From assembly GCA_016840405.1 (NCBI GenBank), contig JAEOSK010000035.1, forward strand, positions 1 to 27,715: 27,715 nucleotides of DNA, given 5' to 3'. This DNA comes from Candidatus Hermodarchaeum yapensis (lineage in GTDB: Archaea > Asgardarchaeota > Hermodarchaeia > Hermodarchaeales > Hermodarchaeaceae). The notes below the pieces were generated by a model. It saw only the letters and a program-made list of their open reading frames with translations, was not told the origin of the DNA and searched no databases. Positions 15,918 to 17,433 of this stretch are shown piece by piece (position 1 is the stretch's first letter; each line of letters starts with the position of its first letter). Both the position numbers and the translations under genes were made by a program.

Positions 15918-16643
15918 TTACGGCTTGAGGGAGGGGAGTTCGGGATAGTCAACAGCTTTGATAGCATCAGGTACATTGGTTTTTGTACCCTTTGTTGTAA
16001 TTAATCGTGATACGGGATGGACCTCCATTCTATGGGCTTCATAGGGAACGAGTAAATCATCGATCGCTTCTCGATCGAGCTTCAATCTCAGCCAGGGCTT
16101 TTCGTCAGCTTGGTGAAGAATTACAGGCATTCGTTTGCGTCTATTGTGCACCTGTTCTAGAAGTGGATTGGCCCAAGTCGTGATGATGGTGAACGTTTTC
16201 AATTCTACCCCGGTTTCGGGGTGAGACCAGTTGTCCCAGAGTCCAGCAAAAGCGAAGGGTTGGCGGTCTTTGAGCTGGATGTAATAGGGGTATGCACGTC
16301 CTTGGTGGTGGCGCCATTCAAAGAAGCCATCAGAAAGGATAAGACACCGGTTAGAATTGATGAGGCTTCGAAATGTGGGTTTGTCGTGTATTGTTTCAGC
16401 TCGAGCATTGAGTGTACGGATTCTAAGTTTATTGGCCGTTACTTCATCTTTCACCCAGTGGGGAATAAGCCCCCAAGTGAGTAGCTGTATTCGATCAGTA
16501 TCTTCTCCTGTGATAACTGGGAGCTGAGGTTTGACAAAACCAGAGATATGATAGATGCGAGAGAATTCTTTGGGTGCGTCCAATTCGGCATGGAAATGCT
16601 TTTCGAGTGTGTCAATATCAGGAACAGTGTAGTGGTAACACAT
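15918..16643 (-). CDS. SOS response-associated peptidase (SRAP/YedK/HMCES family abasic-site crosslinking protein)
   Basis: A start at ATG 16643 gives MCYHY with the required Cys2; WGLIPHW, LNARAET, RCLILSDGFFEW, FAFAGLW, HNRRKRMPVIL. Confidence 0.9.
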   Translation of the reverse strand: MCYHYTVPDIDTLEKHFHAELDAPKEFSRIYHISGFVKPQLPVITGEDTDRIQLLTWGLIPHWVKDEVTANKLRIRTLNARAETIHDKPTFRSLINSNRCLILSDGFFEWRHHQGRAYPYYIQLKDRQPFAFAGLWDNWSHPETGVELKTFTIITTWANPLLEQVHNRRKRMPVILHQADEKPWLRLKLDREAIDDLLVPYEAHRMEVHPVSRLITTKGTKTNVPDAIKAVDYPELPSLKP

Positions 16644-16746
16644 TGACCTGAACCTTCCAAATCTATCTAAATCCACGAGAAGATTACTTTCTATTAAGCG
16701 AGGGGGAATCGGGGAGATTAAATACATTCCTGCATCACTAGGAGTG

Positions 16747-16888
16747 AGGTCCCGGTGTGTGATCCGAGAACCAAGGCGCACGTGACCGGGCAACATCGCC
16801 GGAACGGCGAGTAGAGCCTGTGGACCAGTCAGCATGAGCCGATGGGATGAAGCAGGAAGCCGCATACTTTCAAGGTGCGGTAGTTCAC
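16747..16888 (+). ncRNA. Orphan TnpB-type omega-RNA scaffold / IS200-IS605 right end
   Basis: GCCTGTGGA...GATGAAGCAGGAAGCCGCATACTTTCAAGGTGCGGTAGTTCAC. Subterminal hairpin (16859-16881), TCAC terminus, CCTGT/GCAGG helix, GAAC/GTTC pseudoknot potential. Translates to a TnpB-tail-like EPVD...MKQEAAYFQGAVVH. Confidence 0.7.
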
Positions 16889-17433
16889 TGTGGTCTAAGA
16901 TGTTTTAGTTGTCGAACCATCAATAGACCGATTACAGCTCCAAGGATGCCCAGGACAACGTCTCTGATTACCCCAAAAGTCCAAATAATTAGGATTATTT
17001 GCTGCGGGAAAAAGCCAACTAGGGTAAACACAGCCAAAGCGACAACCGACATTGTCATACTGGCAAAGAATGTCCCCATGATGGCTCGTATTGTGAATGA
17101 CCCGGATTCTGGTGACTTGACAATGTTCATGGCAATGTCAAAGATTAAACCATAGGCGAGCAGAGAGGGAAGAAGGTAAAATCGTACAGGTGAGGGTACA
17201 GTGAATTCGAGTATTAGCCCAGAAATTCCTCCCATCATAGTGCTATAGCCAAAGCCTGTTGTTAGCCCTGCAAGAACTACGAACAAAAGGGATCGAATGA
17301 TGAAGTTGTCTATGCCGTGTGTAATACTCCCAACTAGATAACTTGACAGGAAAGCATAGGCAACATATACTGCAGCTAAGATTGCGGTTAGGGCAATGCT
17401 TTGGGTGTTGGATTTCGTCTTTAGAGTTTTCAT
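16885..17433 (-). CDS. Membrane protein resembling an ECF transporter S component
   Basis: 182 aa with 5-6 TM helices, N-terminal TQSIALTAILAAVY, and LLAYGLIFD. Confidence 0.6.
   Translation of the reverse strand: MKTLKTKSNTQSIALTAILAAVYVAYAFLSSYLVGSITHGIDNFIIRSLLFVVLAGLTTGFGYSTMMGGISGLILEFTVPSPVRFYLLPSLLAYGLIFDIAMNIVKSPESGSFTIRAIMGTFFASMTMSVVALAVFTLVGFFPQQIILIIWTFGVIRDVVLGILGAVIGLLMVRQLKHLRPQ

Follow-up and report, generated by a model that had tools for sequence, protein, structure and literature searches.

The window is the whole 27,715-nt stretch of DNA that was analysed. It belongs to contig C21 of an assembly (G000) of Candidatus Hermodarchaeum yapensis, an Asgard archaeon (2.7 Mb, 77 contigs, 86% complete). 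A protein-less element of 222 bp occupies positions 16667-16888 on the plus strand and sits between two minus-strand genes, a SRAP peptidase gene and an ORF for a 182-aa membrane protein. The stop codon of the 182-aa ORF is the complement of TCA within the terminal GTTCAC of the element. A mechanically called 315-aa ORF (window 15918-16865, minus strand) runs across the element and so adds 74 spurious residues to SRAP; the true SRAP start was assigned to MCYHY at 16643, and the Pfam domain begins at residue 75 of the mechanical ORF. In the congener G002 only ∼30 nt separate the SRAP start from the stop of the membrane-protein ORF (region 16643-16890 of the window), so the two genes probably form one operon. 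At the junction between the TAM-like motif and the left end of the element (family TTTATCTAAA), the minus strand carries a TATA-like TTTAGATA ∼21 nt before the SRAP ATG, through which the left end may give an outward promoter to the gene that it separated.

BLAST and nhmmer profile searches of G000 located 15 full-length orphan copies of the element, ∼222-230 bp in length and 73-89% identical. The initial annotation had proposed looking for multiple copies with differing 3′ flanks, and this is what was obtained: GTTCAC is the right terminus of all 15 orphans and an unrelated 3′ flank follows in each. The left end had been overlooked. The nhmmer profile match covers 16661-16888, and the true start of the whole non-autonomous element (left end, promoter, P0 hairpin and omega-RNA scaffold) lies further left than had been supposed, at 16667. 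The left end itself (16667-16709, plus strand, profile positions 3-84) is homologous to the left end of 1.29-kb tnpB elements. It is preceded at 16662-16666 (plus strand) by a target or TAM-like motif that reads TCTAT here and TTTAT in the family; the left flanks of the 15 orphans finish in TTTAT or a one-base variant.

Orphan profile positions 134-228 matched eight G000 sites directly behind tnpB zinc-ribbon matches, and positions 3-84 matched sites ∼1.29 kb upstream of the same eight genes. The left ∼60 bp of the orphans, TATA box included, match the left ends of these eight tnpB-bearing copies, and the right ∼100 bp match their right end, which is the omega-RNA scaffold within the tnpB 3′ end. 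Since the profile splits onto both ends of tnpB elements, the orphan was read as a tnpB-only element of 1.29 kb reduced to its left and right ends, with a family-specific 48-nt hairpin (P0) occupying the place of the gene. The omega-RNA or IS605 right-end layout that had been recognised from the letters alone is upheld by this homology of the 3′ 100 nt to tnpB right ends and by compensatory changes. No RuvC-III or zinc-finger remnant was present in any of the six frames of 16300-16900, in agreement with the earlier reading that no RuvC-III remnant lies upstream, and a zinc-ribbon profile search gave no TnpB match on contig C21. The claim that tnpB and tnpA are absent is right within the window; genome-wide it is wrong for tnpB, of which there are ∼30 copies, and tnpA was not found.

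Empty alleles, for which a search had also been suggested, were recovered in three empty/filled pairs among congeners. The site in the window is TCTAT-element-TGTGGTC… when filled and …GATTTAA/TGTGGTCTAAGATGTTTAAG… (TTTAA/TGTGG) in the empty allele of G002. An orphan of G005 was paired with an empty site at G000 C14:13896, where the junction is TTTAT/AGAGAATGG (TTTAT/AGAGA), and a G002 orphan was paired with an empty site at G000 C14:109050. Junctions were read base by base in the first two pairs. Insertion was directly 3′ of TTTAT or TTTAA without target duplication. Well-kept copies carry a left-end hairpin, CCCCGTCC-TTCAAG-GTGGGG, that is similar to the right-end hairpin, CTCCGCCC-TTCAAG-ACGGGG. 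These insertion and hairpin traits are hallmarks of IS200/IS605 elements. The left-end subterminal hairpin of the window copy (16682-16707) has decayed, with a DNA fold of -0.9 kcal/mol versus -4.5 to -5.6 kcal/mol in the best-kept copies. With the loss of this hairpin, a left flank of TCTAT instead of TTTAT and ATTAAATA as its TATA box, the window copy looks partly decayed as a transposon. The sequencing runs listed as containing the locus are all DNA metagenomes, and none is of RNA. Contigs from four of the DNA metagenome runs over 16300-17300 break inside the repeat and contain no joint that skips the element.

Y1 TnpA (PF01797) was not found in the 86%-complete G000 assembly by profile search, and neither serine recombinase (PF00239) nor Cas1 was found in the same assembly. 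As no transposase was found, mobility is not current unless a transposase was left unassembled or comes from outside. Mobilisation of the Cas1 type (Asgard aCas1) or by a serine recombinase was considered and rejected, neither gene having been found in G000. One of the 15 genus genomes, that of congener G013, holds a Y1 TnpA in an IS605 whose right end is TAGTTGAC and whose hairpins have TTCA loops; TTTAT lies immediately beyond the presumed left end. This locus was rejected as the parent, being without the scaffold (no model match); it represents a sister subfamily that shares the target and the design of the ends.

Two further loci were observed. Decayed orphan-type elements lie beside a tRNA-like gene in G012, G004 and G007 (L109, L111, L112), and the same place in G000 (C74:9321-9952), which looks like an insertion hot spot, holds a different tnpB fragment whose right end is also TAGTTCAC. 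Separately, G000 has a full tnpB element within the 3.4 kb of C36:12021-15416. Opposite this region, L077 (G002:C85) and L102 (G005:C13) have the right-end scaffold and then just ∼190-230 bp, and this G002:C85/G005:C13 locus may be an independent deletion derivative.

The helices and motifs that the initial annotation had read from the letters were all located where it had placed them. P0 (16751-16790, plus strand) is the 5′ hairpin CCCGGT…ACCGGG with the conserved loop CCGAGAACCAAGG, and its outer stem is retained in 15/15 orphans with some compensatory and G-U changes. It had been described as an extra 5′ hairpin; the hairpin is real but is a family-wide module of the orphans rather than a local extra. 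The tnpB-linked copies are without P0; a shorter stem, located in their coding sequence, is present instead. Derivation of P0 from the 5′ coding end of tnpB was tried and rejected, the local alignment being no better than shuffles (648/2000). P1 (16796-16810, TCGCC/GGAAC/GGCGA) has 5/5 pairs changed on both sides, and the GAAC of its loop (16802-16805) provides the 5′ half of a pseudoknot. P2, formed by CCTGT (16817-16821) with GCAGG (16852-16856), covaries in 3/5 pairs and encloses a K-turn (GGA 16822-16824; GAU-GA-A 16846-16851) and the variable stem P3 (16825-16845), in which 8/8 pairs covary. P4 (16859-16881, GCCGCAT/GTGCGGT) is the subterminal right-end hairpin, with 6/7 pairs covarying, and is probably also the DNA hairpin that a Y1 transposase would recognise. 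The 3′ tail GTTCAC (16883-16888, plus strand like the helices) supplies the 3′ half of the pseudoknot, GTTC at 16883-16886, and finishes in TCAC at 16888, which is the transposon end; 23/23 genomic copies (15 orphan and eight tnpB-linked) stop at this GTTCAC.

A consensus fold of the 23 genomic copies gave P1, P2 around P3, and P4, with double changes in 15/26 pairs. For 27 diverse matches, 94% of cells were paired over the full structure with the pseudoknot, 25/29 pairs had changes on both sides, and 0/500 shuffles were as good. The alignment used for covariation was fitted to the model and thus favours the structure; slid controls fell to only 35-46% paired. The loop pairing GAAC:GTTC that had been proposed was paired in 99% of cells across the 27 diverse right ends. 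It is nearly invariant, with GGAC (G-U) in eight sequences and one mismatch case, and is fully compensated once, as GGUU:AACC. The right end with GGUU:AACC (L094:1501-1595) terminates in AACCAA rather than GTTCAC, and a 106-nt tRNA match, probably intron-bearing, was noted ∼100 nt downstream of it (L094:1697-1802). A single-sequence fold of the plus strand was unexceptional against shuffles (z -0.81), so the support for the structure comes from comparison across copies and not from folding energy. The stretch is far beyond chance, because the 15 repeats all end in GTTCAC and the helices covary.

The check with covariance models that had been suggested had a divided outcome. No Rfam family reached its gathering score anywhere in the window; a model built from the shared 100 nt matched exactly the 23 copies in G000, and it had matches in 43/151 genomes and 19/52 genera of the phylum. 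In a permissive Rfam search the only relevant match was RAGATH-18, over 16817-16858 (26.8 bits versus a gathering score of 44.9, E 0.011). The P2/P3 junction has K-turn geometry, with G-GA on the 5′ strand and NNN-GA-A on the 3′ strand, which explains this weak similarity. Archaeal K-turns are usually bound by L7Ae, so L7Ae might belong to a ribonucleoprotein formed on the scaffold (K-turn at 16822-16851). A distant relative of the scaffold (L093:1526-1622, minus strand) had a sub-threshold match to Rfam HPnc0580, a Helicobacter pylori sRNA (32.9 bits versus 37), which hints that HPnc0580 is itself a piece of an IS605-type right end or omega-RNA.

An archaeal TATA box, ATTAAATA, is located at 16717-16724 (plus strand). 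The initial annotation had called it TATA-like; it is conserved across the orphans and aligns with the tnpB promoter box of the parent elements. The box is ATTAAATA in the window copy, TTTAAATA in the orphan family and TTCAAATA in the parents, where it lies 22 nt before the tnpB ATG (MLRxFRYRLYPN...), a distance that indicates a leaderless tnpB mRNA. In the orphans a non-conserved spacer of 20-21 nt follows the box and conservation restarts at GAGG, 22-23 nt downstream of the box, at a point that corresponds in the alignment to the ATG of the parent mRNA, which is apparently leaderless. The predicted transcription start (16746-16747, plus strand), taken from this restart of conservation, agrees with the placement near 16745-16748 that had been put forward.

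TnpB zinc-ribbon matches number 32 in G000; they belong to several subfamilies, and many are truncated or contain stops. In full copies the TnpB frame runs through the whole scaffold (…DRDxNAAxNIKMIGL…PREPREEPVELSALAEASKQE…), with DRDxNAAxNI coded just upstream of the tnpB-linked right ends and the stop provided by the TAG of gTAGttcac. The tnpB genes with the same right end, which the initial annotation had recommended seeking, are the eight linked copies. Only the C59 copy (P0001, 401 aa) is intact, and the other seven cognate copies in G000 are broken or without ATG. P0001 aligned end to end with the ISDra2 TnpB (E 2e-67), and the D, E and D of the catalytic triad are kept. The congener G010 has 10 orphans and two intact cognate TnpBs; no close TnpB was found in the assemblies of the orphan-carrying congeners G012, G005 and G002.

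The guide position is the 3′ flank at 16889-16908 (plus strand), which falls within the 3′ end of the 182-aa ORF on the minus strand. The letters TGTGGTCTAAGATG at 16889-16902 and the TTTT after them are as had been described, and the T-run (16903-16906) follows or overlaps the guide. Against the empty site of G002 the first 17 bases of the guide are identical (19/20 overall), and the guide matches solely its own insertion site. A search for matches of TAM plus guide had been proposed as well; for the 15 guides nothing beyond chance was found in G000, and no second site with TTTAT and 0-1 mismatch exists there for any of them.

From the end homology to tnpB elements, the multicopy occurrence with a sharp right end, the duplication-free empty sites, the covarying structure and the intact cognate nuclease, all of which were observed, window 16667-16888 is best explained as a PATE/MITE-like element without protein genes, derived by deletion from a tnpB-only parent of the IS200/IS605 type that has an ISDra2-like TnpB. 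We give a probability of about 0.8 to this explanation as a whole, that is, to the origin of the element together with the proposed transcription, TnpB use in trans and homing. Both readings offered by the initial annotation, a stand-alone guide RNA served in trans and a minimal non-autonomous element, fit this one object.

We infer the transcription, TnpB loading, cleavage and kind of acting transposase described here from sequence. The element would most likely work as an omega-RNA-bearing PATE. The left-end promoter, which would drive the leaderless tnpB mRNA in the parent, would start an RNA near 16746. This RNA would hold, in order, P0, P1, the K-turn three-way core, P4 and the GAAC:GUUC pseudoknot, giving a scaffold of ∼143 nt, and then the flank. 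Because the RNA would run past the element end into the flank, the first ∼16-20 flanking nucleotides, beginning at 16889, would be the guide. The orphan RNA would be bound in trans by a TnpB encoded at another locus of the genome; the intact ISDra2-like TnpB of the C59 copy could do so and is the best candidate. Cleavage of the empty allele next to TTTAT by TnpB would be followed by recombination that copies the element back (retention or homing). Moves to new sites would need a Y1 TnpA given in trans.

Constraint after insertion was estimated from two orthologous orphan pairs. The RNA part is 6.8% diverged (19/280 sites; 5.0% and 8.5% in the single pairs), the left end and spacer 12.7% (18/142 sites) and the flanks about 10% (7-15%). 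For two pairs, this is a weak sign of constraint on the RNA part. The same figures can be read the other way, since divergence of the RNA part in situ (5.0%, 8.5%) is near that of the flanks (7-15%). The element would then be an inert relic: the copies would be dead MITEs with no functional RNA now, and their RNA-like traits would persist through the need for a right-end DNA hairpin in transposition and through selection on the source copy. Such a relic would also account for the alteration of the G005 orthologue in the K-turn and P2, the decay of the left-end hairpin in most copies including that of the window, the lack of a transposase in the assembly and paralog identities of just 73-89%. 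Against it, the TATA box, P0 loop, P1 loop, K-turn and pseudoknot are kept in the 15 orphans as the spacer and left-end hairpin drift, and a transposase needs the subterminal hairpins only. Compensatory and G-U changes fit the plus strand, and an intact cognate TnpB exists. We regard the inert relic as rather unlikely, and as the alternative to be taken most seriously.

More speculatively, the 10-15 promoter-equipped guide cassettes per genome might all be kept functional and be served by one or two intact TnpBs with no resident transposase. The set would be a hyperparasite of TnpB that consists of guides only, or a multi-guide system resembling a proto-array. P0 would then be a new 5′ part of the omega-RNA, formed after its release from coding, and spread between strains would be by RNA-guided homing, not transposition. 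We hold this to be a long shot.

Domestication as a trans-acting guide RNA gene (TldR-like or otherwise host-beneficial), fixed here with its guide used in regulation or defence, is very improbable. In favour of it, the copy has a conserved promoter of its own, the scaffold is complete, a T-run comes 14 nt after it, and the gap that the copy occupies between two host genes is operon-like. The TldR-like role that the initial annotation had entertained is nonetheless contradicted by the site being empty in the nearest congener, G002. The 15 guides are unrelated and each is merely the flank, the cognate TnpB retains its catalytic triad, and the lack of a second genomic target (TTTAT with 0-1 mismatch) for any guide argues against a domesticated regulatory role. 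Least credible is that the RNA is an IS607-type reRNA belonging to RAGATH-18 and that a serine recombinase, not a Y1 transposase, moves the element. The sole Rfam similarity, over the K-turn core, speaks for this. Against it stand a score well under gathering, 16 related right ends without a RAGATH-18 match at E 0.1 or better, and a search of G000 that gave no PF00239 match. The TnpB is also much nearer to ISDra2 (E 2e-67) than to 8iaz, the other solved TnpB (E 1e-34), and the scaffold lies inside the tnpB frame, where IS607 reRNAs are reported apart from coding sequence. The element further has paired subterminal hairpins and a TTTAT target with no duplication.

The preferred reading, an omega-RNA-bearing derivative of a tnpB element, has published counterparts, and the kind of element is already described: both stand-alone omega-RNAs and omega-RNA-bearing PATEs are known. 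In the preprint of Meers et al. (2023, PMC10055086), PATEs are described as elements that ‘often encode omega-RNAs’, which depend on a TnpB acting in trans. Like PATEs (PMC10055086), the present element is protein-less, has both ends of a tnpB element, is multicopy, carries an omega-RNA predicted for use in trans and is inserted beside a TAM without duplication. Unlike PATEs, it has an Asgard host and an archaeal TATA box in its left end placed to start the RNA directly, a 48-nt hairpin replaces the tnpB-embedded part of the omega-RNA, and no resident TnpA was found. Stand-alone mobilised omega-RNAs have been shown working in trans (Altae-Tran et al. 2021, as summarised in PMC10691335). As that summary describes them, they resemble the orphans in being without effector or transposase in a genome that also holds effector loci (PMC10691335). 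Going by the same summary, the orphans differ in that their origin from one particular 1.29-kb parent is traced from end to end, and trans use is here predicted.

The cognate TnpB resembles that of ISDra2 (PDB 8exa, 8bf8, 8h1j) in its full-length alignment and D-E-D triad. As in the ISDra2 omega-RNA, the scaffold overlaps the tnpB 3′ end, stops at the transposon end and has a guide-adjacent pseudoknot. The ISDra2 TAM is TTGAT. Unlike ISDra2, the present family has the TAM-like motif TTTAT, its element is without tnpA and its scaffold is unrelated at the Rfam level. RAGATH-18 is the reRNA core of IS607 TnpBs (PMC11061315), and the K-turn of RAGATH-18 (RF03064) was studied in PMC8191799. The orphans share with the RAGATH-18/IS607 reRNA a K-turn core, CCUGU-GGA...GAUGAA-GCAGG, in a guide-RNA scaffold; they differ in a similarity that is sub-threshold, and in TnpB clade, transposase type and relation to the coding sequence.

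What is particular here is thus local: the Asgard host, the likely reuse of the tnpB promoter for a guide RNA, P0, a K-turn within a scaffold of the ISDra2 type and a genome that seems to have no transposase of its own. The element leaves knowledge of OMEGA systems unchanged. For annotation, a spurious 74-aa extension of the SRAP gene is removed. For the family, the locus gives a resolved Asgard example of a TnpB transposon losing its gene: the boundaries are exact, the target is TAM-like, empty alleles exist and the structure covaries. It also offers a compact, predicted self-promoted omega-RNA scaffold of ∼143 nt together with a matched ISDra2-like TnpB, open to experiment.
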